From Abditibacterium sp. (GTDB lineage Bacteria; Armatimonadota; Abditibacteriia; Abditibacteriales; Abditibacteriaceae), in the NCBI GenBank assembly GCA_965199495.1, contig CBDASK010000003.1:2752001-2816000 (forward strand): a stretch of DNA of 64,000 nt. The letters are read 5' to 3'. Positions 1 to 23,027 of the stretch are shown here, piece by piece. The notes beneath the pieces were generated by a model that saw only the letters and a program-made list of their open reading frames with translations, was not told where the DNA came from and ran no database searches. Made by a program: the position numbers and the translations under genes. Numbering within the stretch: position 1 is the stretch's first letter; the number at the start of each line of letters is the position of its first letter.

Positions 1-1373
1 GCGGCGTATTCGAGCGCGTGTTCCTTGAATTCGGGCAAACGATGCGTTTCCACGGTTAATCCGCACGCTCCGGCGTGGCCGCCGCCCGAAACAATCAATT
101 CGCGCGATTCTTCGAGCAACGCGTGCAAATCGAAATCGGCGCACGAGCGCCCCGACCCATGCGCGTGGCCGTTCTCGATATTGAGCGCGAACGCCGGGCG
201 ATGATACTTGTCCACCAACTTCGCCGCCAACAATCCAACCACGCCGCGCCGCCAGCCCTGACCCGCCGCGATCAATAAACGGTCGCTCGACAAATTCGCC
301 TCGCGCTCGACTAACTCGTGAGCTTCAATCAGCGCCGAATCGGTATCGGTGCGACGCTGTCCATTCAAAGCCTCGATTTGCGCGGCCAAATCGGCGCATT
401 CGGCTTCATCGTTGGACAATAACAAGCGCAGCGCTAACGTCGGCGAATCCAGACGGCCCGCCGCGTTGAGGCGCGGCGCCAATTTAAACGAGACATCACC
501 GCCGACATAAAACCCTTTGTCGCGAATATGGGCGCTTTCGATGAGCGCGCGCAACCCTTTTTTGCGCGTGCCGTAAAGTTGATGCAAGCCGCGCGCGACC
601 ATGTAACGGTTTTCGTCGTGGAGCGGCACGCAGTCGGCGATGGTCGAAAGCGCCACCAAATCCAAATAGCGCTCGCTAAATGAGTTGAGCGCGGCGGGCT
701 GATAACGCTTCAAAAGCGCGGTCATCACTTTATAAGCCACGCCGCAACCAGACAATCCGGTGAACTCGTATTTGGAGCCTTCGCACTTGGGGTTGACAAC
801 AGCCACGGCGTCGGGCAAGCCCGATTCGTCGGGTTCGTGATGGTCGGTGATAATCAGGTCAATGCCGACTTCGCGCGCGCGCCGCGCGGCGGGCGTGGCT
901 GTGATGCCGCAGTCGGCGGTCACGATTAAAGAAATTTTGCGCGCGACCGCTTCGTCAATCACTTCGACCGTGAGGCCATAACCTTCGTCGCGTTCGGGCA
1001 GGCGAAACGAAACCTGTGCGCCCAACTTTTGCAGACTGCGCACCAAAAGCGCCGTCGAAGTGATGCCGTCCACATCGTAGTCGCCGAAGATTAAAATATG
1101 CTCGCGGTCAACGATGCCTTTCCACAAACGGTCAATGGCTTTCTCGATGTCAGGCAAGTCGGCGGCGTCGCGCAAAAGTCCGGGATGGGGCGCGAAAAAC
1201 GCTTCGATGGCCTGCGCGCTGCTATGACCGCGCGCGCGCAAAATGGCGGCGCTGACGGGCGAAATGTTCATGCGCGCCGCCATGCGACGGTCGCAAGCCT
1301 CGACCTGAGTGAGGGCTTGCCAGCGCGCCGAAGGCGGGGCAACGGGTGGAGCGGGGGAGGGAAAAGCAGCCAT
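1..1373 (-). CDS. recJ: Single-stranded-DNA exonuclease RecJ (3' end runs off the window)
   Basis: My manual translation of the minus strand from ATG 1373 gives DHH-family motifs IFGDYDVDG, TADCG, ITDHH, LSTIAD, APRLNAAGR, GSGRS and GGGH. Not in the supplied ORF track because it is open at the window edge. Confidence 0.93.
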   Translation of the reverse strand, partial: MAAFPSPAPPVAPPSARWQALTQVEACDRRMAARMNISPVSAAILRARGHSSAQAIEAFFAPHPGLLRDAADLPDIEKAIDRLWKGIVDREHILIFGDYDVDGITSTALLVRSLQKLGAQVSFRLPERDEGYGLTVEVIDEAVARKISLIVTADCGITATPAARRAREVGIDLIITDHHEPDESGLPDAVAVVNPKCEGSKYEFTGLSGCGVAYKVMTALLKRYQPAALNSFSERYLDLVALSTIADCVPLHDENRYMVARGLHQLYGTRKKGLRALIESAHIRDKGFYVGGDVSFKLAPRLNAAGRLDSPTLALRLLLSNDEAECADLAAQIEALNGQRRTDTDSALIEAHELVEREANLSSDRLLIAAGQGWRRGVVGLLAAKLVDKYHRPAFALNIENGHAHGSGRSCADFDLHALLEESRELIVSGGGHAGACGLTVETHRLPEFKEHALEYA

Positions 1374-2097: not shown

Positions 2098-2222
2098 GCT
2101 TGAGATTTTTTTACCACAAAAACACAAAATGTTGGAAGAACAACGCTTAATTTAAAGCAATCTCTTCGCTCTCTTTTGTGCTTTTTGTGAATTCTATGTT
2201 TTGTGGTAAAAAAATCTCAAGC
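2098..2222. repeat. Long intergenic palindrome; degenerate AT-rich relative of the CCACAGAG family
   Basis: GCTTGAGATTTTTTTACCACAAAA ... TTTTGTGGTAAAAAAATCTCAAGC, lying between convergent genes. Confidence 0.75.
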
Positions 2223-2252
2223 ACTCCCTTTGAAAATAGCGCGGCTATAAAT

Positions 2253-3053
2253 TTAGCTCAAGCCCATTTTCGCCAGATAATCGTAACTTGATTTGAGACA
2301 ATCGAAACCGTCGCGATAGCATTTGTCCTGCTCGATGGCAATCCATTCGACGCCCGATTGCAGGCACGCCGGAATCAGGTGCGCCCAGTCCATGTTGCCC
2401 TCGCCAATCGGCGCCATAATCGGCTCTTGACCGTCCATTTCTTTGTCCTTAATGTGAATCACCGGCATTCGGCCTTTGCATCTTTCAACGATGCGCTGCG
2501 GGTTGGCGCCGCCGTGCGCCAGCCAATACAAATCGAGTTCGAGCAGCATATCCGGGTTGCCGCAATCGATAATCAAATCGAGTAGGGTGCGCGGCTGGCC
2601 ATTTTGGTAATCCACGCGTTCCAACTCGAAGGCGTGATTGTGATAGCCAAAGCGCACGCCGCCCGCCTTGAGTTTGGCGATGACCGGCGCGGCATCGTCG
2701 CAAAAACGGCGATAACCATCGGCGCCCGCTTCCTTATATGCTGGCGGAATGCCGCCGATGGCGGTGAAGTCGCAGCCCAACGTTTGGTGAAATTCGATTT
2801 CTTTGTCGGTATCGTCGCGCAACTGCTCCCAACTGCGGTGGGTGGCGATGCACTTCAAGCCGTTATCATCGAGAATTTGTTTGGCCTGATTCGCATCAAG
2901 TTCGGGATTCTCGCCGTTCATGGCGCCGACCGCCGAAAGTTGCACGGCGGTGTAACCCATCTGGGCGATGCGCTCCATGCTAATTGTGAAGTCGGCGGCG
3001 GTCTTGAGGTGATCGCGCAAGGTGTAAAGTTGGACAGCTAAATGATTGGCCAT
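2253..3053 (-). CDS. Sugar phosphate isomerase/epimerase (AP-endonuclease-2 TIM barrel)
   Basis: AVQLYTLRD, GYHNHAFE, ELDLYW, HIKD, IGEGNMDW and IEQD motifs. Start MANHL; the longer predicted N-terminus runs through a palindrome. Confidence 0.85.
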   Translation of the reverse strand: MANHLAVQLYTLRDHLKTAADFTISMERIAQMGYTAVQLSAVGAMNGENPELDANQAKQILDDNGLKCIATHRSWEQLRDDTDKEIEFHQTLGCDFTAIGGIPPAYKEAGADGYRRFCDDAAPVIAKLKAGGVRFGYHNHAFELERVDYQNGQPRTLLDLIIDCGNPDMLLELDLYWLAHGGANPQRIVERCKGRMPVIHIKDKEMDGQEPIMAPIGEGNMDWAHLIPACLQSGVEWIAIEQDKCYRDGFDCLKSSYDYLAKMGLS

Positions 3054-3082: not shown

Positions 3083-3245
3083 AATAAGCCACAGAGTTCG
3101 CAGAGAACGCACAGAGGGGCACAGAAAAGCCCGAAGAAAATAAAAGAAGCAGAGAAGAGATATTTTGTATTTTTCTTTTACGCTCTATTTTCTTTGGGCT
3201 TTTCTGTGCCCCTCTGTGCGTTCTCTGCGAACTCTGTGGCTTATT
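3083..3245. repeat. REP/MITE-like palindrome, family A (TAGCCACAGAGTTC.CAGAGAAC.CACAGA...)
   Basis: About 55-bp near-perfect inverted arms. Related copies at 43137, 52376 and 53435. Confidence 0.9.
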
Positions 3246-3293
3246 TTTGGAAGTGAAGCCCCATTGCACACGCGATTGTTATGCTATTACGCG

Positions 3294-4292
3294 ATGCACC
3301 AAATCGAGCGTCTTATCGAAATAGATCGTCGCGTCCGCGCCGGACTGAAGCCACGCGCGGACGAGTTGGCCGACGAGTTCGAGGTATCGCGGCGCCAAAT
3401 CTATCTCGACCGCCGCAAACTCATCGAAATGGGCGCACCCCTAACGCGCGATGTTGCCGGTGGCTGGGTGTATAGCGAGCCAAACTGGATTTTGCCGTCG
3501 CAGTTTTTGCGCGAGGGCGAATTGCTGGCGTTCTTTTTGTCGGTCGAAATCGCGCGCAGCCAGGGCAACGCCGGATTGCAAACTCAATTGCAAAACGCCG
3601 CCAGCAAAATCGCTAAAAGTCTGGGCGACATTATTTCGGTGGATTTAAACGCGTTGCGCAATTCGACGAGCTATTCTTTATCGCCCGCCGCCAGCGTTGA
3701 CGCCGAATTGCACGCGCACATCTGTCGCGCCATCGCCGGGCGCCGCAAGCTGCGCATGAGCTATTTCACCGCGTCGAGCGGGCGCCAGAGCGAGCGCATT
3801 ATTCATCCGTATCATCTGTATATGGCGCGCGGCGAGTGGATTTTGATCGCCCACGACCAGAGCAAAACCGCCGATGACGCGCCGATTCGCTGTTTCAACA
3901 TCGCGCGCATTTCGGGTTTGCAAGAACTCGTCGGGCGCGACGCAAACTTCCAAATCGCGCCCGATTTCGACGCCAAAACCTACATCCGCGAGATGTTCAC
4001 CGCCGAGCGCGGCGACGAACTGCACGCCGTCGCCATCTGGTTCGACGCGCCCCAAGCCCGCTATATCCGCGAGCGCGTCTGGCACGAAAACCAGACCATC
4101 GAAGAACATTCCGACGAAAGCCTGACGCTGCATTTTCGCGCGAGCGGCCTGAACGAAGTCGCGCGCTGGACGCTGAGTTATGGCCGTCACGCCCGCGTGG
4201 TTTCGCCGCCGCAACTGCGCGCCATCGTCGCCGATCACGCCCGCGAGTTGGCCGCGATTTACGCCGATGTCACGCCGCAAGAACAGTTATAA
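3294..4292 (+). CDS. WYL-domain transcriptional regulator (HTH-WYL-WCX), CRISPR-associated
   Basis: HTH LADEFEVSRRQIYLD, WYL region RIIHPYHL...WILIAHD...FNIARI, and WCX region RERVWHENQ...WTLSYG. Lies directly upstream of cas6. Confidence 0.92.
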   Translation: MHQIERLIEIDRRVRAGLKPRADELADEFEVSRRQIYLDRRKLIEMGAPLTRDVAGGWVYSEPNWILPSQFLREGELLAFFLSVEIARSQGNAGLQTQLQNAASKIAKSLGDIISVDLNALRNSTSYSLSPAASVDAELHAHICRAIAGRRKLRMSYFTASSGRQSERIIHPYHLYMARGEWILIAHDQSKTADDAPIRCFNIARISGLQELVGRDANFQIAPDFDAKTYIREMFTAERGDELHAVAIWFDAPQARYIRERVWHENQTIEEHSDESLTLHFRASGLNEVARWTLSYGRHARVVSPPQLRAIVADHARELAAIYADVTPQEQL

Positions 4293-4302
4293 TTTTTCAC
4301 CT

Positions 4303-5049
4303 ATGCGACTTCATTTTCAACTTTCGCCCAATCTCCAGTCGGTGGATTTCAACTACCATCATTTTTTGGCGGGCGCCGTCCACCGGTGGCTCGGCCCCGA
4401 CAACGCTTATCACGACGGCCTGAGTTTGTATAGCGTGGGCAACTTGCAGGGCGGTTTCGCCGTTCGCGGCCACGCTACAAGCAGCCACGGCCAAGGTCAC
4501 GGCGGCGCCTTGAGCTTCCGTAGCGGCGCGCGCTGGCACATTTCGGCGCCCGATACCGATGGCGGCACCGAGTTTCTGGCCCAAATCGCCAACGCCGCGC
4601 TGCAAAATCCGAGCGTGTGTTGCGGCATGGAAGTCGTCGAAATTTCGAGCGAGAACACGCCCGAATTCGGCGCCAAACGCGTGTTTCGCGCGCAAAGCCC
4701 GATCTTCATCCGGGGTGACAAAGACGGCGAACTCGACCCGCACATCCTCTTCGACAACCCGCAGGCGAGCGCCTATCTGACCCAAACGCTGCGCCACAAA
4801 CTCGACAAAGCCGGATTAAACCATCTCAGCGAAAGCGTGACTGTGCGCTTCGATTTGAGTTATCCGTCGCCCAAAACGCGCTTAATCCGCATTAAAGAGG
4901 GTTTCGACCAAAACGGCAACCGCAAAGATTTCTGCAAACGCGCCAGCGTGTGCCCGGTAATTATTGAGGGCGACGCGGAAGCCGTGCGTTTCGCCTGGAA
5001 CGTCGGCGCGGGCAATCTCACCGGCATGGGTTTCGGGAGTCTGGTTTAA
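4303..5049 (+). CDS. cas6: CRISPR endoribonuclease Cas6
   Basis: C-terminal G-rich loop AWNVGAGNLTGMGFGSL, plus HRWLG..N..HDGLSLYS motif and cas context. Confidence 0.92.
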   Translation: MRLHFQLSPNLQSVDFNYHHFLAGAVHRWLGPDNAYHDGLSLYSVGNLQGGFAVRGHATSSHGQGHGGALSFRSGARWHISAPDTDGGTEFLAQIANAALQNPSVCCGMEVVEISSENTPEFGAKRVFRAQSPIFIRGDKDGELDPHILFDNPQASAYLTQTLRHKLDKAGLNHLSESVTVRFDLSYPSPKTRLIRIKEGFDQNGNRKDFCKRASVCPVIIEGDAEAVRFAWNVGAGNLTGMGFGSLV

Positions 5050-5073
5050 TGGAACTTCTCAAAGAACGTAAAG

Positions 5074-5170
5074 GTTCCTGCGGCCCGAAGACTCGCGCCA
5101 CGACCTGCCGTATTGAAGAGTTCCTACAGGGACGGTCTTCGCGACTGGATATGGGTAGGGCCGCAGGTCA
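5074..5170 (-). ncRNA. Putative DUF3800-associated structured RNA, unit 2
   Basis: 10-bp closing stem CCTGCGGCCC(5077-5086)/GGGCCGCAGG(5158-5167) and inner GAAGAC/GTCTTC pairing. Flanks are shared with the unit at 5248-5356. Confidence 0.55.
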
Positions 5171-5247
5171 ATTTTTTCCCTTCTTTAGCTCGAAGTCCAG
5201 TCAAGCGGAACTTTCGACGGTTGCGCGGCATCTTAAACAGCGTAATT

Positions 5248-5356
5248 GTTCCTGCGATCCGAATCTCCGCTCCGGCAGTAGCCGGGCTGACGATACGTTG
5301 CCTCTCGGCGTATGCTGCTTGTCAACAGCCTTCAGTCGCGATAGGATCGCAGGTCA
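5248..5356 (-). ncRNA. Putative DUF3800-associated structured RNA, unit 1
   Basis: Closing stem CCTGCGATCC(5251-5260)/GGATCGCAGG(5344-5353), compensatory relative to unit 2. Starts about 20 nt after the DUF3800-like stop on the minus strand. Confidence 0.55.
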
Positions 5357-5375
5357 CCCTCTATTCGCTTCGTTT

Positions 5376-5711
5376 TCAGCGAGTGACGATCAAATTATTT
5401 GTGTCGCTCGCCATCTCCTTCAAAAACTGGCGCAATGCCGAAATTTTGATTTTCCCCATCGTCTGCCTTCGCAACGTGTAGGCCATAATATCGGCCAACT
5501 GAATCATATTACTGGTCTGAGATTCTCTAACTCGCGCATTGAAGCGGCTTCCAGGATGAATTTCTCGGTGACACCGCTTCAATGCGGTTTCAAACGCCTG
5601 TTGCGCGCTCTTGCCTTCATTTTCGGTGTCGCACCACAAATCTCGCACAGGAGCAGGTTCTTGGAGTCTGGTATGAGGAATTACTTTTTTAAGGAACAGA
5701 AGGCGGTTTTT
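5376..5711 (-). pseudogene. 5'-truncated DUF3800-like gene (C-terminal half)
   Basis: VRESQTSNMIQLADIMAYTLRR resembles the DUF3800 C-terminal 'DS...IQLAD' motif. There is an in-frame stop at 5714-5712 upstream and I found no N-terminal DESG motif. Confidence 0.6.
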
Positions 5712-5741
5712 TCATCAACAGGAAAAACAAGCGTTGCGACC

Positions 5742-5787
5742 TTGACAAGCATAACGCGACATCCTAAGATTATCTCCGAAGGAGGAG
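5742..5787 (+). promoter_or_regulatory. Sigma70-type promoter and strong Shine-Dalgarno
   Basis: TTGACA (5742-5747), 17-nt spacer, TAAGAT (5765-5770). GGAGGAG at 5781-5787 lies 8 nt before ATG 5796. Confidence 0.8.
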
Positions 5788-5795
5788 AATATCCA

Positions 5796-5978
5796 ATGAA
5801 TATGCGTTTGGAAATCGAGACGCAAGTTCTGATTTTTGCGCTCTTGGGATTGGTTGCAGTCATCGTTGCGGTTCTGTTTTTTCAGTCCAATGCCACACGG
5901 CTCCAAACAGTAGCCAAAAGTGGTCAGCAACAAATCTCGATAGATGTAGAACGGCCCATAACCAACAATACCAAATGA
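5796..5978 (+). CDS. 60-aa single-pass membrane protein; candidate CRISPR-repressed toxin
   Basis: MNMRLEIETQVLIFALLGLVAVIVAVLFFQSN...; has its own promoter and SD, and its start region matches the adjacent mini-spacer. Confidence 0.7.
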   Translation: MNMRLEIETQVLIFALLGLVAVIVAVLFFQSNATRLQTVAKSGQQQISIDVERPITNNTK

Positions 5979-6020
5979 TCAAAACACTGCATTTTTCTGT
6001 GATTGGGTTGCTTGCAACTC

Positions 6021-6120
6021 GTTTAATCGAACCTTTGAGGTATTGAAATATGAAAATGCGGTTGATGAGAAGATCGGGAAGATATTCGATGTTTTCCCGG
6101 CTTCGATTCTTAATTAAAGC
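6021..6120 (+). CRISPR. Solitary diverged repeat plus spacer (crRNA-like regulatory RNA, CreA/CreR-like)
   Basis: GTTTAATCGAACCTTTGAGGTATTGAAAT (6021-6049) keeps the GTTT(T)AATCG start and ATTGAAAT handle of the array repeat. The spacer from 6050 matches 5796-5810. A hairpin follows at 6075-6099, and 6091-6120 may be a very degenerate second repeat. Confidence 0.8.
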
Positions 6121-6150
6121 CTCTATTTTCAGCAGAGAAATCTTCGTGCT

Positions 6151-7806
6151 ATGAACTCATTTAACCTCACCGGCCATTACATTCTTGATGCCTCACTCGC
6201 GGCCTCTGCCGCGTTGCTTGAAGACTACGACAAACGCAGCATCGAAACTCCGCAGCAAATGAGCGGAGCAGATATTCTGCGCGCGTTAGAGCTGGCGGAG
6301 CAACATTTTTACTCCCGTCAAATCTCGAAAGAAAATGATGGCGATTTGCGACCGCTTTTCTACTTCTTGTTACAAGAAATTTTGCCCGGCTCACCTTGGG
6401 ATCAAGTCAAGAGTGGTGCTGTTTCCGAAGGGATGCAACGTAAATTCGCCGAATACATCGCAGAAGCGAAGAGCGCGTTGCTTCAACCTGCTATCGGCAA
6501 ATGTTACCTTTCAGGCCAAGAAGGGCACTTGCTCGTTTCCAAGTCAAATCTACCGATGTTGGCTTCGTCAGGGGAACGCCCAAACTGCTTTCCCAACTTG
6601 AGCGATGGTTTGACCATCAACGGGTATTTGGCGCTGGCCGTTTTGCTCTCTCCGCTCGGCATCGAAAAGACGCTTAACGACAAAGGAAAGGGCGGGCAGA
6701 ACTTGGTGTATCATGCGACGGATTGGCGCTTTATGGTCTCCATTGCAAAGTCGAATATTGATCGCATTCGCCGCTTGTTGGCTTCCAATTCCATTGAGGC
6801 GTTCCGCGCTCGTCATTATCCGAAGTTTCGGCGTGGCTCGTGGAAGAAAGGGCTGCAAACCCTGATGCACGCGACGCAAAACATTCCTGCTGATGCACGT
6901 CCGCAAGTCGTCATCTGGAGCTTCAACGCGTCCAACCAAACCTGTCGTTACGAGTGCCGCGAAACTTCCGACGCGTTTCTCATCATCGCTGCGCAACGAC
7001 TTTTGCAGCCTGCGCTCTACCGCGAATTACTCGGAGTTTCCGATTATGTCGCCCGGCTCATTTTGCAGAGCCAACCGATCATTGGCGCGAGCTTGATGCG
7101 CGATAAGAAGCATCTCGAAATGCGTCCGGGCTGGCCCTTTCAACGATTCTACGCCGAAAAGGTGCTTTTCATGTCTCCAACTTTACTTAACTCCATCGAA
7201 GATGCGGCGCTGGCACTTAGCGCCGACAAAGAGGCGATTAACTATTGTCTTTACGAAGAGAAGCGCCCCAACGTCCGCGTTTTGGCAGATCGCTACAAAC
7301 TCGCGCCAGAAATTGTAGCGCGCTTTGCCAATGCGCCCTCGCAATGGCCGGATTATCTGCGTGCCGCGTTGCTATGGGCCGACAAAGGTAATGCTTTTGA
7401 GCCACGACAAAAAGTCGTGTTCCAGCCGCAAGAACTCGAAGTTAAGTTCAAGGAAATCGCGCCGCGTCTGGCCCACATCGGGTCTTATAAGCTCGCGGCG
7501 CGATTACTCAATCAATACAATCCGCGCGCCTACCGACAAGCATGGATTCGACTTATCTCGCGCAAAGCCGCGACATGGGACGACTTTTTATTCTTCAACC
7601 CCATAGAAGAAGCGTTTGGCAATGGCGACTACGCCCGCACTTCTACGCTTCGCCACTACCTCGTTGCGTATTTGTTGGCTTGCGTTCACCAACAACCCCC
7701 AAACGCGACGGCTTCCGAACCTAATGAAGCCGAAATCGAACGCGACGTGCAGCAAATCGAACGCGAAATTCCCATCGCATCTGAAAACGAAGAGGAACTC
7801 ACCTAA
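6151..7806 (+). CDS. cas8: Divergent type I-B large subunit (Cas8b1/Cst1-like)
   Basis: Sits before cas7. N-terminal LTGHYILD, KCYLSG and LPMLAS...NCFP pattern, and C-terminal LRHYLVAYL are as in the Cst1/Cas8b1 family. Confidence 0.75.
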   Translation: MNSFNLTGHYILDASLAASAALLEDYDKRSIETPQQMSGADILRALELAEQHFYSRQISKENDGDLRPLFYFLLQEILPGSPWDQVKSGAVSEGMQRKFAEYIAEAKSALLQPAIGKCYLSGQEGHLLVSKSNLPMLASSGERPNCFPNLSDGLTINGYLALAVLLSPLGIEKTLNDKGKGGQNLVYHATDWRFMVSIAKSNIDRIRRLLASNSIEAFRARHYPKFRRGSWKKGLQTLMHATQNIPADARPQVVIWSFNASNQTCRYECRETSDAFLIIAAQRLLQPALYRELLGVSDYVARLILQSQPIIGASLMRDKKHLEMRPGWPFQRFYAEKVLFMSPTLLNSIEDAALALSADKEAINYCLYEEKRPNVRVLADRYKLAPEIVARFANAPSQWPDYLRAALLWADKGNAFEPRQKVVFQPQELEVKFKEIAPRLAHIGSYKLAARLLNQYNPRAYRQAWIRLISRKAATWDDFLFFNPIEEAFGNGDYARTSTLRHYLVAYLLACVHQQPPNATASEPNEAEIERDVQQIEREIPIASENEEELT

Positions 7807-9150
7807 ATGCAAACAAACACTATCCGCCCCTTTGTTTTGGGCATCATGATGACCGACGAATGGGCCGCTTCTCCCAACATGGGTGAGCCAAAAGGCGACG
7901 GCCAAAACCAGCGTGCGGCCATGAAGTCCATCCGCACCGCCGAAGGCACACGCACGCTGATCTCCGGCCAATCTATTGGCTCGTGGCACCGTGCCACGCT
8001 TTACGACCGTTTTGGTTGGGACATTAGCGAACTGCAAGAAACAATTTCAGGGCGCGACACGCGCCAATTCTACACGCAGTGCCAGCCTATCGAATTCGCC
8101 GAGGACGACGGACGCGGCTATCTGGCGGCAGTGACGATTGTCAAAGGTTCGCCCCTCACGACCAAACGCACTTCGCCCTTTATGCTCTCCCAATTTCAGT
8201 CTTTGGCGGCTATCGCGCCCACAACTGAATTTGGCATTTTGGCGCGCGGACTGGAAGAGCTACCCGAAGAATCCAAGGGCAACATGATTTTTCAATCCGA
8301 GTTGGCCGCCGCATCTTACGCCGGAATGTTCGCGCTCAACTGTTCCGAGCTTGGCGTGTTCACCGTTGGTGCGGGCCGCGATTTGTTGCCCTTGGCCGAT
8401 CTCAAAAAAGGTTTGCCAAAGGAAAACTTCACTGCCTTGGCGAAATCCGAAGACAAGCGAACCAAAGAAGACAATACAAAAATTTCAGAGGTTACCAAGG
8501 CTTTGAAGCGTTGCGTCAATCTCGAACGCGGAGCAATGCTCGCTTTACCTGCACCAGTTCGCCAGCAACGCGCGCACGATTTGGTCGCCGCGATGGGCGA
8601 GTTGGAAGGTGGCGCGCTGATGACGCGTAGACTCTATAACGTCGCGCCCGCGTCGGCTTTGATCGCGTTTATGGATGGTGGTAACTGTCTTCCTCCCTAT
8701 GTTTTCCGCGCCGTGCGCGAAAACCCTGATTTGGGCCGCAATTCCCCGATGCGCTATGAAGTGGACATTGAGCGTTTGTGGAAGATTCTCAAAGACAATG
8801 CCACACGATTCTTGGAAATGGGCGAAAACGGGTTCAATTTGTTCTTTGGAACGCTTGGTGCGCCCACAATCGCCAATGAAGCCGCTGTGCGCGACTTGCT
8901 CGAAGGCAAAGACGAGGCTCACCCGTTGCCGCCCGAAATCAAAGCGAAGGTTTGCGATGGCCCGCGCGAAGCGGTTCGTTATGCCGCCGACTCCATCCCG
9001 CAATCTTGGTTCGCCAAGCCAGAAAAAGCTATTGAAGTCACTTCCGATTTGGCCTATGGGGAGCAATTGCTACCCGTTTTAGGAACGGAAGTCCCCGGCG
9101 CCAAAAAGGAGAAGACCAACAATGAACCCACTCTCGATTTGTCGAGTTGA
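7807..9150 (+). CDS. cas7: Cas7 (DevR/Cst2-like) backbone subunit, unusually long
   Basis: ASPNMG, ISGQS, PIEFAEDDGRGYL, TKRTSPF and IFQSE motifs typical of DevR/Cst2. Confidence 0.85.
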   Translation: MQTNTIRPFVLGIMMTDEWAASPNMGEPKGDGQNQRAAMKSIRTAEGTRTLISGQSIGSWHRATLYDRFGWDISELQETISGRDTRQFYTQCQPIEFAEDDGRGYLAAVTIVKGSPLTTKRTSPFMLSQFQSLAAIAPTTEFGILARGLEELPEESKGNMIFQSELAAASYAGMFALNCSELGVFTVGAGRDLLPLADLKKGLPKENFTALAKSEDKRTKEDNTKISEVTKALKRCVNLERGAMLALPAPVRQQRAHDLVAAMGELEGGALMTRRLYNVAPASALIAFMDGGNCLPPYVFRAVRENPDLGRNSPMRYEVDIERLWKILKDNATRFLEMGENGFNLFFGTLGAPTIANEAAVRDLLEGKDEAHPLPPEIKAKVCDGPREAVRYAADSIPQSWFAKPEKAIEVTSDLAYGEQLLPVLGTEVPGAKKEKTNNEPTLDLSS

Positions 9151-9802
9151 AATCGAAGCTCTTAGTGCAGCTTTTTTCGCTCCCGGCTACAACAATGATG
9201 GTTGCAAATCGTTGCCTGTGCCGCCGCCATCGGCCATCCAAGGCTTAATCGCAGCGGCAACTGGCAATCCCGGTGAGAGCGGATTTAGTGCGGCGTGGAG
9301 CTTCAAGTTTTTCGGCGATTACGAAGACTTCGAGAAGATTGTTCCTTCGCGTCGCAAGCCCAACGTTGATGACTTCGAGTCTTTTCGCACTGGTTACCGG
9401 CTCAACCGAACGCCCGTCAAACGGCGTTATCTGATCGAACCGCGTTTGACGCTTTACGTTGAACAGCGTTTAGCGAGTGCGCTTCTCGCGCCATATCACA
9501 CTTTGCGCTTGGGACGTAGCCAAGATTTAGCGTGGGTTTCCAGCGTCGAAAATACGACGCTTGAACCGACCGACGCTGCCGATATTCAGGGTGTTGTCGT
9601 GCCCTTTCCGCCGCCCCCCGGTGCGCTCGCTTCTTTTCTGTGGAATGTGCCGGGCAAAGCCACAGGTTACGACCAAAGACAGTGGAGCCAGCCCAGTCCA
9701 CACGCTTTTCTAACCGCTCGACAATCGGTGCGCGAATTGAAAAGCCGTAACTTCTATCTCGATCCACAAACCCAATTGGCTGTTCCGCTTTACCAATTAT
9801 GA
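9122..9802 (+). CDS. cas5: Cas5
   Basis: SLPVPPPSAIQGLIAAATG and LRLGRSQDLA motifs. Confidence 0.9.
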   Translation: MNPLSICRVEIEALSAAFFAPGYNNDGCKSLPVPPPSAIQGLIAAATGNPGESGFSAAWSFKFFGDYEDFEKIVPSRRKPNVDDFESFRTGYRLNRTPVKRRYLIEPRLTLYVEQRLASALLAPYHTLRLGRSQDLAWVSSVENTTLEPTDAADIQGVVVPFPPPPGALASFLWNVPGKATGYDQRQWSQPSPHAFLTARQSVRELKSRNFYLDPQTQLAVPLYQL

Positions 9803-12126
9803 AAGCTCCCAACACAAGACGACAAATACTCGCTAAATCGAGTGGGATGACGCTGGAACAACATACGCGCGACGTTTGCGATGCCGCACGTATGTTGTTT
9901 CGGCTTCTGCCTTCCGCTCCTAATTTAGCGCGCGCTGCGTGGCTGCACGACTTAGGCAAAGGTGCCCTGTTTTTCCAAAAGGCGATTCGCGGTGAGAAGC
10001 ATAACGGAATGCGTCACGAGCTTTTCTCTTATTTGTGGGCCGCGAGCTTAAGAAGTGAAAACCAGTTCAGCGATGCAGAATTGGCCGCAGTTTTATCCCA
10101 TCACCGGCAACTTTGGGTTACGGAGAAGAACTTGAGAAAAGCAGAAATTGCCGAGTGGTGCAGTGACGGTTCAAATTTGGACGAAGTTGTGAGTGATCTC
10201 AAAACACTGATTTCTCAGCAACTTCGAGAATATCAAGTCGAGATTGAAACTCTCTTTGGGGATTTCCCTGCACTACGCCCAAAATATGCCGCGCAAAAGA
10301 TGCGCGACTTGCATAGTGTGTGCAAAAGCAATTCGGTGTGGACTCCCGAAGGCCGCGAATTGATGCTATACCGTGGCACTTTGGTAGCTTCCGATCACTT
10401 GGCCTCGGCGGAGTTAGGCGTTGCTTTGGCGGGCCGCACCATATTCGCGCGCCGTATGGGAAAAGTCGTAGCGGCACAAATCAAGAGACGCCCGAAAAAG
10501 CCCGGTCATTACGTTCGCCCTTGGCGCGGTTGGAGCTGGATGCAGAAACAGTGCGCGCAAACAACAGGCAATGCGCTTCTCGTGGCGCCAACGGGTGCCG
10601 GAAAGACCGAAGCCGCGTTGTTGTGGGCGTTGAATAATCGCAAAGGTGCCGAGCGCATCTTTTACGTTTTGCCTTATCAAGTTTCTATCAACGCGATGGC
10701 CAAACGACTGAGCAAACTATTTCCAGATGAAATCGGCGAAAGCGAGTTGGGCAAAAACTCCAACGTGGCTGTTGTGCATTCCAATTCGGATTTGGCTTAT
10801 TTACAGGAATCATTACGCGATGATGTCTCGCGCGATGAAGCCGAACGCATCGCCAAGGCCAACAAAGGCGCGGCGCGTCAGCTTTATTCGCCGCTCAAAG
10901 TTACGACGGTTTATCAACTGCTCAATCTGTTCTTTGGCCGCAAGTTCTTTGAAGTTGGATTGCTCGAACTCTCCAATTCGTTAGTGATTTTTGATGAAAT
11001 TCACGCCTACGATGGGCACACGATGGGTTTGATCCAAGTCTTGCTGGAATGTTTGAATCGTCTGGGCGCGCGGGTGTTTATTATGACGGCGACTCTGCCG
11101 GAAACACTCAAAACGCATTTGCGCGAGGCCGCACACATCGAACCGCACCAAGAGATTCGTCTGCCCGATAATGATCCGTTGCAAAGCGAAGCGCGGCGCG
11201 AGATTAACGTCAGCGAAGAAAACATCGAGAGTGAAGCGATTATTGAGGAAATCAAGCGACAACTGAGCGAGAACAAGCGCGTTGCTGTCGTTTGCAACAC
11301 GGTCAAAAAAGCGATTCAGATGTGCCAGCTTTTGCAGAAGCATGAGCCGTATTTGGTTCACTCGCGCTTCACTCTCGGCGACCGCGCGCGACGCGAACAA
11401 AAAGAAATTATAGAAGCGAAAAAGCTCGTTATCGCTACTCAGGTCATCGAAGTCTCGCTCGATGTTTCTTTTGGCGCGATGTTCACCGAACTCGCGCCCG
11501 CCGACGCGCTGTTACAACGTTTCGGACGCGTCAACCGGCATGGCGACGGCGTTCAGTCGGCGCCAGTGTGGATTTGTTGTGGCGAAGATTCCGGCTCGCA
11601 AAAGATTTACGATCCGCAACTTTTACAAGCAACCGCGCAGTGGGCGCGCGACTTCCAGAGTTCAGGGGACAAACTGACATTCGCCGCTTCGCTGCTTTGG
11701 ATGGAAAGCGTTTATCCGCACGGCCTCAGCGCCAATGAAGCAGAGGCGATGGAAAAGGCGCGGGCCGGATTTACCGAAGTCGTGGACAATCTCAAACCGA
11801 TGCTCGATCCGATTATAGACGCGGACTTGGAATTGACTTTGTTTGAGACGATTCAAGTCGTGCCGAGCAAATGCGAACAAAAACTGCAAGAGGTAGTTCA
11901 CGCTAAGAATTATCTCGCCGCCAAAGAGTTGCTCGTCAACGTCAACTTGCGCTCGTGGTTTGGCGCCGAGTGGCAAGCGCGCAAACAAGGATTTGAGCAT
12001 TTGCGCGAACGGCCTGATTTACACCCGACGCGCCCTTATAAAATCGCGCTCTACCGCTACGACGAGAAATTGGGTTTGTTATTGGATGATCCTTGCGACG
12101 AAAGTGATTCCAATTTTTGCATCTAA
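9799..12126 (+). CDS. cas3: Cas3 HD nuclease-helicase
   Basis: HD motifs LEQH, LHDLGK, RHE, HH, SDH; helicase motifs APTGAGKT, DEIH, MTAT, HSRF, QRFGRVNR. Confidence 0.96.
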   Translation: MKAPNTRRQILAKSSGMTLEQHTRDVCDAARMLFRLLPSAPNLARAAWLHDLGKGALFFQKAIRGEKHNGMRHELFSYLWAASLRSENQFSDAELAAVLSHHRQLWVTEKNLRKAEIAEWCSDGSNLDEVVSDLKTLISQQLREYQVEIETLFGDFPALRPKYAAQKMRDLHSVCKSNSVWTPEGRELMLYRGTLVASDHLASAELGVALAGRTIFARRMGKVVAAQIKRRPKKPGHYVRPWRGWSWMQKQCAQTTGNALLVAPTGAGKTEAALLWALNNRKGAERIFYVLPYQVSINAMAKRLSKLFPDEIGESELGKNSNVAVVHSNSDLAYLQESLRDDVSRDEAERIAKANKGAARQLYSPLKVTTVYQLLNLFFGRKFFEVGLLELSNSLVIFDEIHAYDGHTMGLIQVLLECLNRLGARVFIMTATLPETLKTHLREAAHIEPHQEIRLPDNDPLQSEARREINVSEENIESEAIIEEIKRQLSENKRVAVVCNTVKKAIQMCQLLQKHEPYLVHSRFTLGDRARREQKEIIEAKKLVIATQVIEVSLDVSFGAMFTELAPADALLQRFGRVNRHGDGVQSAPVWICCGEDSGSQKIYDPQLLQATAQWARDFQSSGDKLTFAASLLWMESVYPHGLSANEAEAMEKARAGFTEVVDNLKPMLDPIIDADLELTLFETIQVVPSKCEQKLQEVVHAKNYLAAKELLVNVNLRSWFGAEWQARKQGFEHLRERPDLHPTRPYKIALYRYDEKLGLLLDDPCDESDSNFCI

Positions 12127-12136
12127 ATTAATCATC

Positions 12137-12691
12137 ATGTTTCAAATTCCCAATTTAACCGGAACGCATCTCAATTATTGGTTGATTTGTCATCGCAAGT
12201 TATGGCTTTTTGCGCGCGGCATTTCGATGGAACTCGAAAACGAGGACGTGAAGATCGGCAAGCAAATCGGCGCGCAGAGTTATAGGCGCAGCGAGAAAGA
12301 GATCAATCTCAACGATACCGCCGTGCTTGATTTCGTCGAACATCAGAGCGGCGACGATGGCGTTTTGACGGTTCACGAAATCAAAAAATCCAAGGCCATG
12401 AACGAGGCGCACCGTTTACAAATGTTGTTTTATCTCGATTTTCTGGCGGCCAAAGGCGTGACGGCGCGCGGCATTATTGACTATCCCGAAACCAAACAAC
12501 GCGAAAGCGTCGAACTCGACGCGGGCGGCGTGGCTCTGTTGGAGCGCGCCAAAGTCGGCGCCACGCAGGTCATCGAAAGCGAGGTCGCGCCGCCGCGTCT
12601 GGACGCGATTAATCCCAAGAAACTCGCGTTTTGCCAGAAGTGCGCCTACTTCGATTTTTGTTACAGCGACGAACTTTCCAGCCACATCTGA
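12137..12691 (+). CDS. cas4: Cas4
   Basis: TGTHLNYWLICHRKLWLF, HEIKKS, QMLFY and CQKCAYFDFC motifs. Confidence 0.95.
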   Translation: MFQIPNLTGTHLNYWLICHRKLWLFARGISMELENEDVKIGKQIGAQSYRRSEKEINLNDTAVLDFVEHQSGDDGVLTVHEIKKSKAMNEAHRLQMLFYLDFLAAKGVTARGIIDYPETKQRESVELDAGGVALLERAKVGATQVIESEVAPPRLDAINPKKLAFCQKCAYFDFCYSDELSSHI

Positions 12692-12745
12692 TTTGCTCGC
12701 CTGCCACTGCGCCGAAGTGGAGCGAACGCAATTCATTGAGTGAGG

Positions 12746-12820
12746 GAGCGGGGCTGGCGCACCCTTCCAATCCAAAATTTGCCTTCGCGCCAAGATTGGA
12801 AGGGTGCGCCAGCCCCGCTC
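12746..12820. repeat. REP-like palindrome, family C (AGCGGGGCTG...TTCCAATC)
   Basis: 27-bp perfect inverted arms between cas4 and cas1. Related copy at 61777. Confidence 0.85.
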
Positions 12821-12915
12821 TCCTGAAAATTCGGCTCGCTTCAAAATCCCATTTGGGACGGGCGACATAAGCAGCCACGGCGGGGCCGTCGCATTTTAAT
12901 CGGGACACTTTCACC

Positions 12916-14052
12916 ATGAAACGACCCTACTACATTTTTTCGGCGGGCCGCATGCAGCGCCACCAAAACACACTTTATCTGCGGCCTTTTGCCGACGCCG
13001 ACGATCCGCTCGCGGGCGACGACTGGAACGATGCCGCCGCCTTGGGCGGTTGCGCGCTCGAAGATTTGGAGGCCGACGATTTGATGCTCGTGGACTTCGA
13101 CGACAGCGCCTATTCGCCGCGCCCGACGCTGGCCAAACGCCCGATTCCCGTCAACGACATCGAAGCGATTTACCTGTTTGGCGAGTGCGATTTCAATTCG
13201 GCGTTCTTCAATTTTCTCGGCAAAAACCGCGTGCCGCTGCACTTTTTCAACTACTTCGGCTTCTACACCGGCAGCTTCTGGCCGCGCCAAGAAGTCATCT
13301 CCGGGCACACCACGGTTCATCAGGTTTTGCTTTATGCCAACGACCGCAAGCGCGTGGATTTGGCGCGCCTGTTGGTCGAGGGCGCCGCGTTTAACATTCT
13401 CAAAACGCTGCGCTACTACAACGCCGCCAGCCGGGGCCGCGACCTGAGCGCGTGGATTGACACCATCGAATCGAACCGCGCGCTTTTGCCCGCCGCCGCC
13501 GATGTGCCCACGGTGATGGGCATCGAAGGAGCCACGCGCGCCGCCTACTACGAGGCGTGGTCGCAGATTTTTAGTCCGTCGTGGGCCGAGTTTCAAAAGC
13601 GCGTCAAGCGCCCGCCCGATAACCCGGTCAACGCGCTGATCTCGTTCGTCAACAGCCTGTGCTACACGCTGTGCCTGAGCGAGATTTATCGCACCGCGCT
13701 CAACCCGACGATCTCGGTTTTGCATCAGCCCGGCCAGCGCCGCTTCTCACTGGCGCTCGATGTCTCGGAGATTTTCAAACCGGCTTTGGTGGACAGGCTC
13801 ATCTTCAAACTCATCAACAACGGCGAAATCCAGCCCAAACACTTCGATCAGGCGCTCAACTTTTGCCACCTGAATAAAGCGGGGAGGGAAATCGTCGTCA
13901 AAGCGTGGGAAGAACGCCTGCGCGATACCTTCGAGCATCGCGCGCTCAAACGCCGCGTTTCCTATCGCCGCCTGGTGCGCCTCGAATGCTACAAACTGCA
14001 AAAACATATGATCGGCATGGAAACCTACGAACCGTTCAAATGCTGGTGGTAA
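12916..14052 (+). CDS. cas1: Cas1 (type I-B) with an acidic N-terminal insertion
   Basis: FFNYFGFYTGSF, MGIEG, KRPPDNPVNALISF, RFSLALDVSEIFKP..VDR and C-terminal YEPFKCWW. Confidence 0.97.
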   Translation: MKRPYYIFSAGRMQRHQNTLYLRPFADADDPLAGDDWNDAAALGGCALEDLEADDLMLVDFDDSAYSPRPTLAKRPIPVNDIEAIYLFGECDFNSAFFNFLGKNRVPLHFFNYFGFYTGSFWPRQEVISGHTTVHQVLLYANDRKRVDLARLLVEGAAFNILKTLRYYNAASRGRDLSAWIDTIESNRALLPAAADVPTVMGIEGATRAAYYEAWSQIFSPSWAEFQKRVKRPPDNPVNALISFVNSLCYTLCLSEIYRTALNPTISVLHQPGQRRFSLALDVSEIFKPALVDRLIFKLINNGEIQPKHFDQALNFCHLNKAGREIVVKAWEERLRDTFEHRALKRRVSYRRLVRLECYKLQKHMIGMETYEPFKCWW

Positions 14053-14073
14053 TATAATTTTAAGGAGCAAACT

Positions 14074-14337
14074 ATGTATGTCATCGTGGTCTACGACATC
14101 GAAGTCAAACGCGTTCAAAAGGTCAGCAAATGCCTGCGAAAATGGCTGAACTGGGTGCAAAACTCAGTTTTCGAGGGCGAAGTCACGCCCGCCACACTGC
14201 GCCAGATCAAAGGCGAACTCGCCCAAATCATCAACCCGCTCGAAGACAGCGTACTGTTCTACCAAATCCCCGCCGCCACCAAATGGCAGCGCGACGTGAT
14301 GGGCATCGAAAAACTCAGCACGAGCAACTTCCTTTAA
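14074..14337 (+). CDS. cas2: Cas2
   Basis: MYVIVVYDI...WVQNSVFEGE, with SD AAGGAG. Confidence 0.97.
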   Translation: MYVIVVYDIEVKRVQKVSKCLRKWLNWVQNSVFEGEVTPATLRQIKGELAQIINPLEDSVLFYQIPAATKWQRDVMGIEKLSTSNFL

Positions 14338-20400: not shown

Positions 20401-23027
20401 GCGAACGCATCGCGGCGTATCTGGTTTTGGGGTTTTAATCGGGTCTTGTGAGATTGAAATTTGGATGGCGCGACGAGCGCACGACTCAGGGCGAAGTTTT
20501 AATCGGGTCTTGTGAGATTGAAATTTTGAATGGGATTGATCGAGAGAGAAAAGCGGGCAACGTTTTAATCGGGTCTTGTGAGATTGAAATGAGCAACTCG
20601 TCAAGCTCAAGCTGTCGCGCAAGTTGCGTTTTAATCGGGTCTTGTGAGATTGAAATAACTGCACCGCGACAAAGACGGCAACCCGAATTTGAAGTTTTAA
20701 TCGGGTCTTGTGAGATTGAAATTCATAGTAATAATCGCCTTGTCGGTCGTCCGATGTTGGTTTTAATCGGGTCTTGTGAGATTGAAATAAGTGTCGGACA
20801 TGACGACCGCGCGGCGTTTGGCGCGCGGTTTTAATCGGGTCTTGTGAGATTGAAATTGCCGCCCGCATCATTCACTTGAACCGATTCCAGGGCGTTTTAA
20901 TCGGGTCTTGTGAGATTGAAATTCACCTTTACGAGCGCGCGCTACTGCGCAAGGCGATGTTTTAATCGGGTCTTGTGAGATTGAAATAACGTCGCCGTTG
21001 TCCCAGCGCTGGGACGAAAGCGGGTTTTAATCGGGTCTTGTGAGATTGAAATCTTATGAATATCCTCAAGCCCGTCGTCTGTCTGGCGCGTTTTAATCGG
21101 GTCTTGTGAGATTGAAATAGAGCTGTGTCATCGGCGCGTTTCGCAAATATCTCCGCGTTTTAATCGGGTCTTGTGAGATTGAAATATTTGTCGGTGGCCA
21201 CCAACCTGACGGTCGAGCAAGGCGTTTTAATCGGGTCTTGTGAGATTGAAATGCTTCTTTTCGTCGTCAATAACGTCGCCGAGAGCTGTTTTAATCGGGT
21301 CTTGTGAGATTGAAATGACGTTCGAGCGGGCGACATTATAACCGGAGACGGGCGGTTTTAATCGGGTCTTGTGAGATTGAAATATTTGCCGGGGCTTCCG
21401 GCGCCGATTCGCGCGGCGGGTTTTAATCGGGTCTTGTGAGATTGAAATGAGATTCCAAACGCCTTGAATCACGGCGGGAATTCCGCGTTTTAATCGGGTC
21501 TTGTGAGATTGAAATTATTGATAGGCGCGCGACTTCTGCAACTGGAAGCGTTGTTTTAATCGGGTCTTGTGAGATTGAAATAAATCAACGCTCCATATCC
21601 GCGTCCATCGCTTCGGGAGTTTTAATCGGGTCTTGTGAGATTGAAATTTTAATCGCGCGACTTATCGCCGGGTGATTATGTCCGTTTTAATCGGGTCTTG
21701 TGAGATTGAAATGTTTTCTCGACGCCCGCCACGATGCCCGAAAACTGGGTTTTAATCGGGTCTTGTGAGATTGAAATGCTTTGCACGGCACGCGGCACCC
21801 TGCGCCAGTGCGGGTTTTAATCGGGTCTTGTGAGATTGAAATTTTTAACAACATTATTGTAACAATGTCCCGGTTTTTTGTTTTAATCGGGTCTTGTGAG
21901 ATTGAAATGGAAGGTTGAAATGGAGGAGGCTGCATCCGCCCTAAAAGTTTTAATCGGGTCTTGTGAGATTGAAATTAACTTGCGTCGTCGTAGGAGATGT
22001 TTTGGCCGCGATGTTTTAATCGGGTCTTGTGAGATTGAAATCTCGACAAAGGTCGCCTTTGCGTCGTAGGGCAAACCGGGTTTTAATCGGGTCTTGTGAG
22101 ATTGAAATATGGAACCGGAGTCGAGACTAAAACTCGCTACTTCAGTTTTAATCGGGTCTTGTGAGATTGAAATTGATGTCCACTCAGGAGCGAGTGGCGA
22201 TTTTTGGCAGGTTTTAATCGGGTCTTGTGAGATTGAAATACCAATAGACAAAGGGCAATCCTTGGCCACGAGTATTGGTTTTAATCGGGTCTTGTGAGAT
22301 TGAAATGATTCACGCACGTTGGCGGTCTTATCGCCGCTTTGAGTTTTAATCGGGTCTTGTGAGATTGAAATGCCTCTTTGTCACTCTTGCAATTCTTTCA
22401 AAGGCGGTTTTAATCGGGTCTTGTGAGATTGAAATTGCGTAACGTAGCCAGTCGCGCCGGGGTCGTCGGCCGTTTTAATCGGGTCTTGTGAGATTGAAAT
22501 CACGCTCGATGCCCTGCGCAGCGTCAACCTCAATTCGAGTTTTAATCGGGTCTTGTGAGATTGAAATACGTTTTGGGTTCGGCGAAAGACATAGCCGAAG
22601 CAAGTTTTAATCGGGTCTTGTGAGATTGAAATAATGAACGCGGGGTTTGGAAGCGACGGGCTTAACCGGTGTTTTAATCGGGTCTTGTGAGATTGAAATT
22701 TGGCGAAAGTCGGCGGCGTCTAATAACCATTTGTGGGTTTTAATCGGGTCTTGTGAGATTGAAATGACAGTTGGACGCCGACCCGATGTTGGCCGTTGGC
22801 GAGTTTTAATCGGGTCTTGTGAGATTGAAATTGACAAATCGCCAAACTCTTTTCGATCCATTCCCGAAGTTTTAATCGGGTCTTGTGAGATTGAAATGCT
22901 GAACGGCACCGGGCACGCGGCGCAATACGCGCATGTTTTAATCGGGTCTTGTGAGATTGAAATCATTAGCCGCTGCCGGTCATTCGACGCTGCTCGTTGT
23001 TTTAATCGGGTCTTGTGAGATTGAAAT
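14476..23027 (+). CRISPR. CRISPR array; repeat GTTTTAATCGGGTCTTGTGAGATTGAAAT (29 nt); about 130 units
   Basis: First repeat 14476-14504, last 22999-23027. Spacers are about 34-39 nt. The unit count is estimated from a period of about 65 nt. The ATTGAAAT 3' end and leader position give + orientation. Confidence 0.99.

Follow-up and report, generated by a model that had tools for sequence, protein, structure and literature searches.

Within a 64,000-nucleotide (nt) stretch of DNA from Abditibacterium sp. (contig CBDASK010000003.1, positions 2,752,001 to 2,816,000; hereafter the window), the gap between cas6 and cas8 of a type I-B CRISPR (clustered and regularly interspaced short palindromic repeats) locus holds a lone degenerate repeat and, directly behind it, a guide-like stretch that matches the start of a small open reading frame (ORF) in the same gap. 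This observation is real and lies well beyond chance. Judging from the sequence, we think it likely that the repeat and guide yield a CRISPR RNA (crRNA)-like RNA of the CreA/CreR type that guides Cascade to repress the transcription unit of the small ORF, a unit that probably runs on into cas8.

Lone repeat, guide and target, and their conservation

The lone repeat (psi-R1; Table 1) retains the 8-nt 5′ handle with which the repeats of the downstream array end (ATTGAAAT). It is identical to the array repeat at 24 of 31 aligned columns, including all of the last 8 nt, and thus represents a repeat-like sequence, with the handle part retained, that lies outside the array and inside the cas locus. 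The repeat-likeness of the gap beats that of 300/300 shuffled versions, and the Rfam model CRISPR-DR2 picks out exactly these 29 nt, at 24.2 bits (E 0.11), which is below its gathering score of 37. The guide-like stretch that follows (psi-S) agrees with the target, from its first base onward, at 13 of 15 positions. The mismatches are at positions 6 and 12, and bases 16–18 are all mismatched, so that the match is a partial one on the side of the protospacer-adjacent motif (PAM). The matched site is near a promoter but downstream of its core, 23 bp after the −10 hexamer. The first-pass annotation, which was made from the sequence alone, had described the promoter, the Shine–Dalgarno sequence, the CCA trinucleotide, the ORF, the lone repeat and the guide, had reported this same match with nothing pairing beyond base 15, and had remarked that the start of the ORF rather than the core promoter would be targeted; our check of the sequence placed every one of these elements where it had put them and bore out the other two statements. 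A descent of guide from target that extends past base 15 was also considered, and was rejected because the shuffle test was not significant.

When both strands of the genome of the window (4.8 Mb, in three contigs) were searched, all 13 pairing positions matched at three sites, namely the target (preceded by CCA), the DNA of the guide itself (preceded by AAT, part of the handle) and one unrelated site preceded by TGG. The target is the sole site in the genome that joins 13/13 pairing positions with CCN. Because the guide and the messenger RNA (mRNA) of the ORF have the same sense, and hence identical rather than complementary bases, the guide could not act as an antisense RNA and would pair only with DNA, on the template strand.

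For the PAM, we compared the spacers of the window's array, and those of the array of a related genome, G004 (236 repeats; the repeat differs from that of the window at 3/29 positions), with related genomes and with the genome of the window. The credible non-self protospacers comprise those of window spacer 44 in G009 (32/37 identical, preceded by CCT), window spacer 65 in G003 (32/35, CCC), and G004 spacers 86 (32/36, CCC) and 100 (33/36, CCG), the latter two in contig C2 of the window's genome. CCN precedes 4/4 of them and therefore, within this small sample, the CCA beside the target fits the system's own PAM, as the first-pass annotation had supposed. (Note that a match of G004 spacer 101 in G029, 29/37, was not counted as a protospacer; its 11 PAM-proximal bases are mostly unmatched and CAC lies upstream.) The window's array had no match among 50,697 phage records, and the second half of the G004 array, compared with the genomes, gave mostly flanking-gene and repeat matches and no usable protospacer locus. 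C2 itself is 64.5 kb long, carries the two G004 spacer matches at ~18320–18355 and 61215–61249, behind CCC and CCG, and is probably a plasmid or phage-like element that was met by the lineage of G004. Two spacers of the window also match its own genome. Spacer 37 (16860–16896) matches C3:593119–593155 at 37/37 positions, behind AGC and inside a gene for a DUF347 membrane protein (the same site is 32/37 in G004), and spacer 69 (18947–18984) matches C3:4220111–4220148 at 34/38, behind CGT. These non-CCN flanks fit tolerated self matches, although spacer 37 could be either that or a further regulatory guide.

The guide is closed by a predicted hairpin. In the window, the RNA from the handle to the end of the hairpin (6042–6105, 64 nt) folds at −18.8 kcal/mol (z −2.75), with the hairpin beginning at guide base 20, and the counterpart in G004 (59 nt) folds at −18.8 kcal/mol (z −2.95), with the hairpin beginning at guide base 26. 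In both RNAs the hairpin is the only predicted structure, and 1/200 shuffles is as stable. The hairpin DNA is identical between the two genomes at only 18/36 positions; what is equal is the stability, not the sequence. Neither a second repeat nor a U-tract terminator was found 3′ of the guide in either species. A stretch at 6091–6119 that by eye is 14/29 alike was tried as a second repeat and dropped, as it overlaps the hairpin and is without a counterpart in G004.

Upstream of the ORF, a scan of 4900–6400 returned three promoter-like sites, of which the one in Table 1 scores best (10/12), with the reservation that promoter rules have not been established for this phylum. Its equivalent in G004 (TTGACA-17-TAAAAT, 11/12) is the sole promoter-like site in 900 nt. 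Transcription would start near 5777, which would place the target ~17–35 bp downstream of the start. Between the ORF and cas8 (5979–6150) the scan revealed no other promoter-like site and no terminator-like site on the plus strand, and the same holds for G004. On the plus strand near cas8, the conserved promoter is the sole promoter-like site. The window and G004 share two further short conserved blocks: TTTTTCAT..CAA..GGAAAAA (5706–5731), upstream of the −35 hexamer, and the palindrome-like TTGCTTGCAA (6008–6017), directly before the lone repeat. These blocks may be binding sites, for example for the neighbouring WYL regulator.

A search with Cas8 over 61 related genomes led to two close loci, in G004 (Cas8 86–87% identical) and in G008 (83%), and the guide–target module is present in one of these two loci with the same Cas8 family. 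In G004 it lies directly 3′ of cas6, and its guide agrees with the start of its ORF at 17/18 positions, with the only mismatch at position 12, behind CCA. Aligning the window with G004 base by base, the one species pair behind all of the identity counts in Table 1, revealed a footprint in which the hexamers, the PAM, the target, the 3′ part of the lone repeat and the first 15 guide bases stand out from flanks that are ~50% identical. The two differences within guide bases 1–15 fall on positions 6 and 12. At a divergence like that of the flanks, two or fewer changes in 15 bases have a probability of ~0.004, and by our arithmetic both would land on positions 6 and 12 in 1 of 105 cases. Type I Cascade flips out every sixth base of its guide and leaves it unpaired, as is established for type I-E and I-F structures. 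The footprint, together with variation at positions 6 and 12, thus looks like the pattern expected from selection for Cascade pairing. Guide and target are kept matched in both loci, and between the loci guide bases 1–15 differ at these two positions only. Furthermore, the frame that starts at the guide in G004 meets a stop at codon 7, after six codons, and therefore the guide is not kept as coding sequence.

The G008 locus has a different lone repeat-like stretch, ending GTTGAAAT, at L009 ~2907–2931, 70 nt before cas8. No target for it was found in its locus or genome, where the best match covers 8 seed bases without CCN; 3 one-mismatch matches compare with 4 control matches, and the stretch overlaps minus-strand promoter-like sites of a DUF3800 gene. 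Five further stretches upstream of similar arrays in Abditibacteriaceae were scanned and contained no lone repeat; three of them have cas genes with a homologous Cas6 and effector genes that are not detectably similar, and two have no cas match. Cas8 alignments to genome contigs found only the two known relatives. Those to metagenome contigs found none, with 357 pattern stretches all rejected, and the exact 23-nt repeat-plus-guide pattern likewise had no match in the metagenome contigs.

Table 1 Features of the cas6–cas8 gap and of the surrounding type I-B locus, with identical positions in the alignment of the window to G004
Feature	Positions	Strand	Description	Identical in G004
WYL/WCX-domain regulator gene	3165–4292	+	Upstream of cas6; Pfam WCX 4.2e-20, WYL 2.6e-14; PADLOC CRISPR-associated WYL 5.2e-34	
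cas6b	4180–5049	+	Pfam Cas_Cas6_C 1.3e-08; PADLOC Cas6b 1.9e-61 over residues 42–288	
DUF3800 gene remnant (C-terminal piece)	5376–5648	−	Pfam DUF3800 7.2e-04, profile positions 112–148 of 149	
Sigma-70-like promoter	5742–5770	+	TTGACA, 17 nt, TAAGAT	
−35 hexamer	5742–5747	+	TTGACA	6/6
Promoter spacer		+	17 nt	6/17
−10 hexamer	5765–5770	+	TAAGAT	5/6
Shine–Dalgarno sequence	5781–5787	+	GGAGGAG, 8 nt before ATG; AGGAGG in the corresponding position of G004	
5 nt before the PAM		+		1/5
Candidate PAM beside the target	5793–5795	+	CCA	3/3
Target (protospacer-like)	5796–5810	+	Matches guide bases 1–15; covers ORF codons 1–5	14/15
60-amino-acid ORF	5796–5978	+	Short N-terminus, one hydrophobic helix (residues 11–29), polar C-terminus ending SIDVERPITNxTK	
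Rest of ORF		+		97/150
Lone degenerate repeat (psi-R1)	6021–6049	+	29 nt; keeps the 8-nt 5′ handle at its end	25/29; 3′ 18 nt 18/18
Guide-like stretch (psi-S)	6050–6068	+	Predicted single-stranded part; bases 1–15 match the target	
Guide bases 1–15		+	Differences at positions 6 and 12 only	13/15
Guide bases 16–26		+		6/12
Hairpin closing the guide	6069–6104	+	Takes the position at which one would look for a second repeat	
Remainder up to cas8		+		26/52
cas8b-cas7b-cas5b-cas3-cas4-cas1-cas2	6151–14337	+	Pfam and PADLOC assignments	
CRISPR array	14476–23027	+	131 identical 29-nt repeats, 130 spacers of 33–39 nt	

The membrane protein and the proposed circuit

The hydrophobic stretch of the 60-amino-acid (aa) protein is 19 residues long, with a mean Kyte–Doolittle value of 3.3. 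Its reading frame is open upstream as far as an ATG at 5049, and ORF finders as well as one public gene call accordingly give a protein of 309 aa, which is likely a mis-annotation that fuses the 60-aa gene to non-coding sequence. Indeed, the upstream two thirds of the 309-aa frame read as non-coding and lie opposite the minus-strand DUF3800 remnant. We accepted the start at 5796 because of the ribosome-binding site and the congener G004, whose orthologue is also 60 aa long and 62% identical. Between the two, nonsynonymous divergence (pN) is 0.225 and synonymous divergence (pS) 0.78 (pN/pS ~0.29), differences at codon positions 1/2/3 number 19/11/34, and the C-terminal SIDVERPITNxTK is retained despite seven synonymous changes. 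The pN/pS ratio and the pattern over codon positions therefore indicate a real gene under purifying selection, one that evolves about four times faster than Cas7 (pN 0.059).

The first-pass annotation had not recognised the protein family, and neither Pfam, PHROGs, NCBIfam nor PADLOC supplied one. With E values up to 10, Pfam gave only a chance-level match to a viral envelope family (0.089), and no PHROG scored below 0.004. An exhaustive profile search of 1.84 billion representatives returned the two orthologues and one repetitive protein of 347 aa (P0003), and a word-based protein search with the 60-aa ORF gave no match. P0003 is of low complexity, contains three copies of a segment that is similar to the C-terminal portion of the 60-aa protein (ATR.R..A.VGR..GSI.VERP; E 7e-06), and has no counterpart in the genome of the window. 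When the ORF protein was used to query 401 genomes of the phylum, credible matches were confined to the window and G004; the other 49 genomes with matches had E values above 0.001, within the hydrophobic stretch of longer frames. The look-alikes proposed by a protein language model, which serve as leads only, were small archaeal proteins at 0.90, a level prone to chance, and class III signal peptide proteins at 0.77.

Taken together, these features suggest the following circuit. The promoter would give one RNA that comprises the small ORF, lone repeat, guide and hairpin, and that probably continues into cas8. Cas6 would cleave the lone repeat 8 nt before its end, resulting in an RNA that starts with AUUGAAAU at 6042 and consists of the handle, ~19 free guide bases and a terminal hairpin. 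Bound by the type I-B Cascade, this guide would pair with the template strand at 5796–5810, beside the CCA PAM. As the pairing would end after 15 bases (18 in G004), no full R-loop would be expected to form and Cas3 would not be recruited, and the hairpin would physically enforce such short pairing. Cascade bound at this site would block RNA polymerase. The predicted outcome is negative feedback on the small ORF, on the guide and, by read-through, on cas8–cas2, and loss or inhibition of Cascade would de-repress the unit. That the feedback would act on Cascade itself is suggested by the same promoter appearing to feed both the guide and the cas8 operon, with the small ORF as a co-repressed passenger.

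Two proposals of the first-pass annotation bear directly on this circuit. One was that Cascade, guided by the RNA, silences an ORF whose start is flanked by CCA. The presence of the module in G004, the variation at positions 6 and 12 only, and the CCN PAM speak for such silencing by a putative RNA. In the second, the element would tune transcription of cas8–cas3 by feedback. Here the structure of the locus makes feedback likely, as no other promoter-like site and no plus-strand terminator-like site lies before cas8 in either species. All of the dynamic steps are inferred from sequence features: transcription of the unit, its cleavage by Cas6, the binding of Cascade, the repression, and the continuation of the transcript into cas8.

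Several points weigh against repression by Cascade. The carriers are only two, and kin, and the conservation is that of one comparison; G008 lacks the ORF and this guide, and the module is therefore dispensable. The target lies downstream of the predicted start site, whereas most published cases have targets in the core promoter. The PAM is drawn from four imperfect protospacers, and the tolerated 37/37 self match of spacer 37 could mean that the system is weak or silent. No promoter of the guide RNA's own was found in the window or in G004, by scan or by eye, and with neither that nor a second repeat the 3′ end and the supply of the guide RNA are conjecture. In addition, the likeness of guide and target past base 15 fails to reach significance (57 and 687 of 1000 shuffles), and promoter rules are unsettled in this phylum. 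Finally, a search for RNA runs that contain the module stretch gave none; in the contigs of two runs, the only matches were an assembly that looks like the source and short pieces of cas8 from relatives whose upstream DNA differs.

The lone repeat and its spacer might instead be a decaying self-targeting spacer or the end of an array, functionless and shared by descent. Such an origin would suit the kinship of the two carriers, the missing second repeat and promoter, and the lone repeat-like stretch of G008 for which no target was found, and scraps of this kind do occur, as a repeat-like 12-mer before cas1 illustrates. However, neutral decay would not be expected to preserve just the handle, guide bases 1–15, the PAM and the target amid neighbours that are ~50% identical, nor to place so few guide differences (~0.004) precisely at positions 6 and 12 (1 in 105), nor to keep the stability of a hairpin while its sequence changes. 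We consider a relic of this kind unlikely. Less probable still is that the two 15-mers are alike because they are the starts of related mini-ORFs (M-N/K-M-R-L) held by a coding or translation-initiation constraint. Positions 6 and 12 are, to be sure, also third codon positions, a frame of 34 codons runs from 6050 in the window, and the genome has one further copy of the pattern ATG-AAx-ATG-CGx-TTG, preceded by a non-PAM trinucleotide, with near matches that are mostly gene-start-like. Yet positions 3, 9 and 15, which are third positions as well, never vary, the second frame of G004 stops after 6 codons so that no protein is conserved, the repeat handle and not a ribosome-binding site precedes 6050, and the conserved CCA, repeat and hairpin would be left unexplained.

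Repression by Cascade, the reading that we favour, leaves room for a more specific one nested within it, in which the 60-aa protein is a membrane toxin under a guard like that of CrePA, such that loss of Cascade or its inhibition by an anti-CRISPR would stop growth and result in addiction to the cas genes or in abortive infection. Small size and one very hydrophobic helix speak for it, as do the strong ribosome-binding site of the gene and a promoter close to the consensus; the ORF lies in the cas6–cas8 gap, as CreTA does in I-B loci; the protein is a fast-evolving orphan, as the comparison with Cas7 and the two members among 1.84 billion representatives illustrate; and both a CreA-controlled protein toxin and, in Haloarcula, co-repression of the toxin and cas8 promoters have been documented. 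Against a potent toxin would stand a promoter shared with cas8, if it is indeed shared, by which the ORF would be expressed whenever Cascade is made. Moreover, the protein has no similarity to toxin, holin or defence families, its language-model look-alikes are only small archaeal proteins at a chance-prone level, many small membrane proteins are harmless, and the G008 locus manages without the ORF. We entertain the toxin, which the first-pass annotation had also proposed, tentatively. Somewhat more doubtful is the full combination, a one-transcript guard in which a Cascade-repressed promoter would drive a membrane-toxin mRNA that carries its own guide in the 3′ untranslated region, freed by Cas6 and closed by a hairpin, and that reads into cas8–cas2.

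The surrounding locus

Between 3165 and 23027 the order is a gene for a WYL-domain regulator, cas6b, a gap of 1.1 kb, cas8b-cas7b-cas5b-cas3-cas4-cas1-cas2 and the array. The array repeat ends in an ATTGAAA-type handle, and the array and cas genes therefore read on the plus strand. With cas6b, cas8b, cas7b, cas5b, cas3, cas4, cas1 and cas2 in one operon and an array of handle-type repeats, the locus belongs to type I-B. PADLOC identified Cas7b (1.6e-23), Cas5b (4.5e-26) and, weakly, Cas8b (0.0096), and Cas3, Cas4, Cas1 and Cas2 were identified by Pfam. The cas6 frame as listed shares 113 nt with the end of the WYL gene (in its 4180–4302 part). Because of this overlap, and because homology begins only at residues 38–42 (in PADLOC and in tblastn comparisons with relatives), the true start of cas6 is probably an ATG near 4303. 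The array of G004 (L041 179–1183) contains an inserted 1-kb element, probably an insertion sequence, of which the genome of G004 has at least five other identical copies.

Directly 3′ of cas6 is a pair of 33-nt direct repeats (5057–5089 and 5231–5263), spaced 174 nt apart and 79% alike, and G008 has a similar stretch, also after cas6 (L009 ~2075–2115). The DUF3800 remnant is a gap filler outside the circuit. Homologous DNA in G008 (L009 ~2190–2815, minus strand) holds a longer DUF3800 gene that, judged by eye, seems intact, and the remnant is missing from the gap of G004. The content of the gap therefore turns over quickly between congeners. Farther downstream, a perfect inverted repeat with arms of ~27 bp separates cas4 from cas1 (~12746–12820) and may be a terminator or processing site that divides the effector genes from the adaptation genes; a 12-nt copy of the 5′ end of the array repeat (ATTTTAATCGGG) lies directly before the cas1 start (12893–12904).

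Relation to known CRISPR-guided regulators

CRISPR-guided self-regulation is already known as a concept, from haloarchaea, Acinetobacter, Salmonella and others, and no new principle is at issue here: CreTA in the cas6–cas8 gap of I-B loci, CreR autoregulation and a CreA-controlled protein toxin (CrePA) have all been described. If the proposed circuit works, it would extend CRISPR-guided self-regulation and the guarding of cas loci to a little-studied lineage and to a new architecture, comprising one degenerate repeat with a hairpin, a target that lies downstream of the promoter and covers the start codon, and a guide made from the transcript that is repressed. The guide variation at positions 6 and 12 alone would then be a clean natural illustration of the every-sixth-base rule. 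If the 60-aa protein is toxic, it would be a second, unrelated protein class among CRISPR-repressed toxins, and should the one-transcript guard hold true, it would be the first CRISPR-repressed membrane-protein toxin, the first such protein toxin in I-B and the first such circuit in Abditibacteriota. The literature that we searched contained no report of a CRISPR-repressed membrane toxin, although supplements to preprints, which lay outside that search, may list more analogues.

In type I toxin–antitoxin systems such as Hok, TisB and Fst, an antisense RNA serves as the antitoxin by pairing with the mRNA of the toxin. The candidate toxin of the window resembles theirs in having no more than 60 aa, a single helix and a polar tail. 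In contrast, the guide of the window, which shares the sense of the mRNA, is unable to pair with it, so that an antisense antitoxin is lacking, and the protein is similar to no such family.

CreT toxins are described as small RNAs in which a mini-ORF with rare codons traps a transfer RNA (PMC12737573; bioRxiv 10.1101/2023.03.10.532045). The window shares with CreTA the location between cas6 and cas8, the logic of repression by Cascade plus a guide, and a strong promoter and ribosome-binding site on the repressed gene. Unlike CreT, its ORF is a full frame of 60 codons under protein-level selection and of equal length in G004. The hallmark of an RNA toxin is absent from it, as rare codons (AGA ATA) at codons 6–7 are found only in G004 and not in the window.

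Autorepression of cas genes guided by CreR or CreA is reported for I-B in Haloarcula hispanica, I-E in Salmonella and V-A (bioRxiv 10.1101/2023.03.10.532045; PMC12737573). The CreA of H. hispanica, located in the cas6–cas8 gap of its I-B locus, represses the toxin and cas8 promoters, and the CreR of Salmonella I-E has 15 consecutive bases in common with a PAM-flanked site upstream of casA (bioRxiv 10.1101/2023.03.10.532045). The first-pass annotation had stated that CreTA/CreR elements occupy the cas6–cas8 gap of I-B loci, and published work agrees. Repeat-like sequences are moreover reported to be enriched around cas6 in I-B loci, and creA genes with a single repeat are known. Likenesses to the described CreR and CreA comprise a degenerate repeat that lies within the cas locus (in I-B, in the same gap) and keeps a conserved 5′ handle, and a partial, PAM-proximal match to a target that has the system's PAM and lies next to a promoter feeding the effector genes. 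The module of the window differs in having one repeat and a hairpin where the described ones have a mini-array of two repeats, in a target over the start codon, ~17–35 bp past the predicted start site, where theirs lie in or beside the core promoter, and in a conserved protein gene between promoter and guide. Its guide, read here from sequence alone, would apparently be made from the very transcript that it represses.

A close parallel for the match itself is CrePA of Acinetobacter baylyi I-F. There, guide bases 1–19 except the 12th match a CC-flanked target, the mature RNA consists of an 8-nt handle and a further 25 nt, and what is repressed is the gene of a protein toxin, the 103-aa KilAC-domain protein CreP, which blocks cell division (bioRxiv 10.1101/2024.01.05.574328). 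Its creA is transcribed from a promoter of its own, and the site targeted by CreA is upstream of the −35 element (bioRxiv 10.1101/2024.01.05.574328). Like CrePA, the module described here lies between cas genes and would put under a CreA-type guide a protein-coding gene that has a promoter and a ribosome-binding site of its own, and it combines a match over the first 18–19 guide bases except the 12th (as in G004) with a CC PAM and what would be a short mature guide. Unlike CreP, the protein of the window is a candidate toxin of 60 aa with a single helix, without a KilAC domain and belonging to no family, and the locus that encodes it is of subtype I-B rather than I-F.

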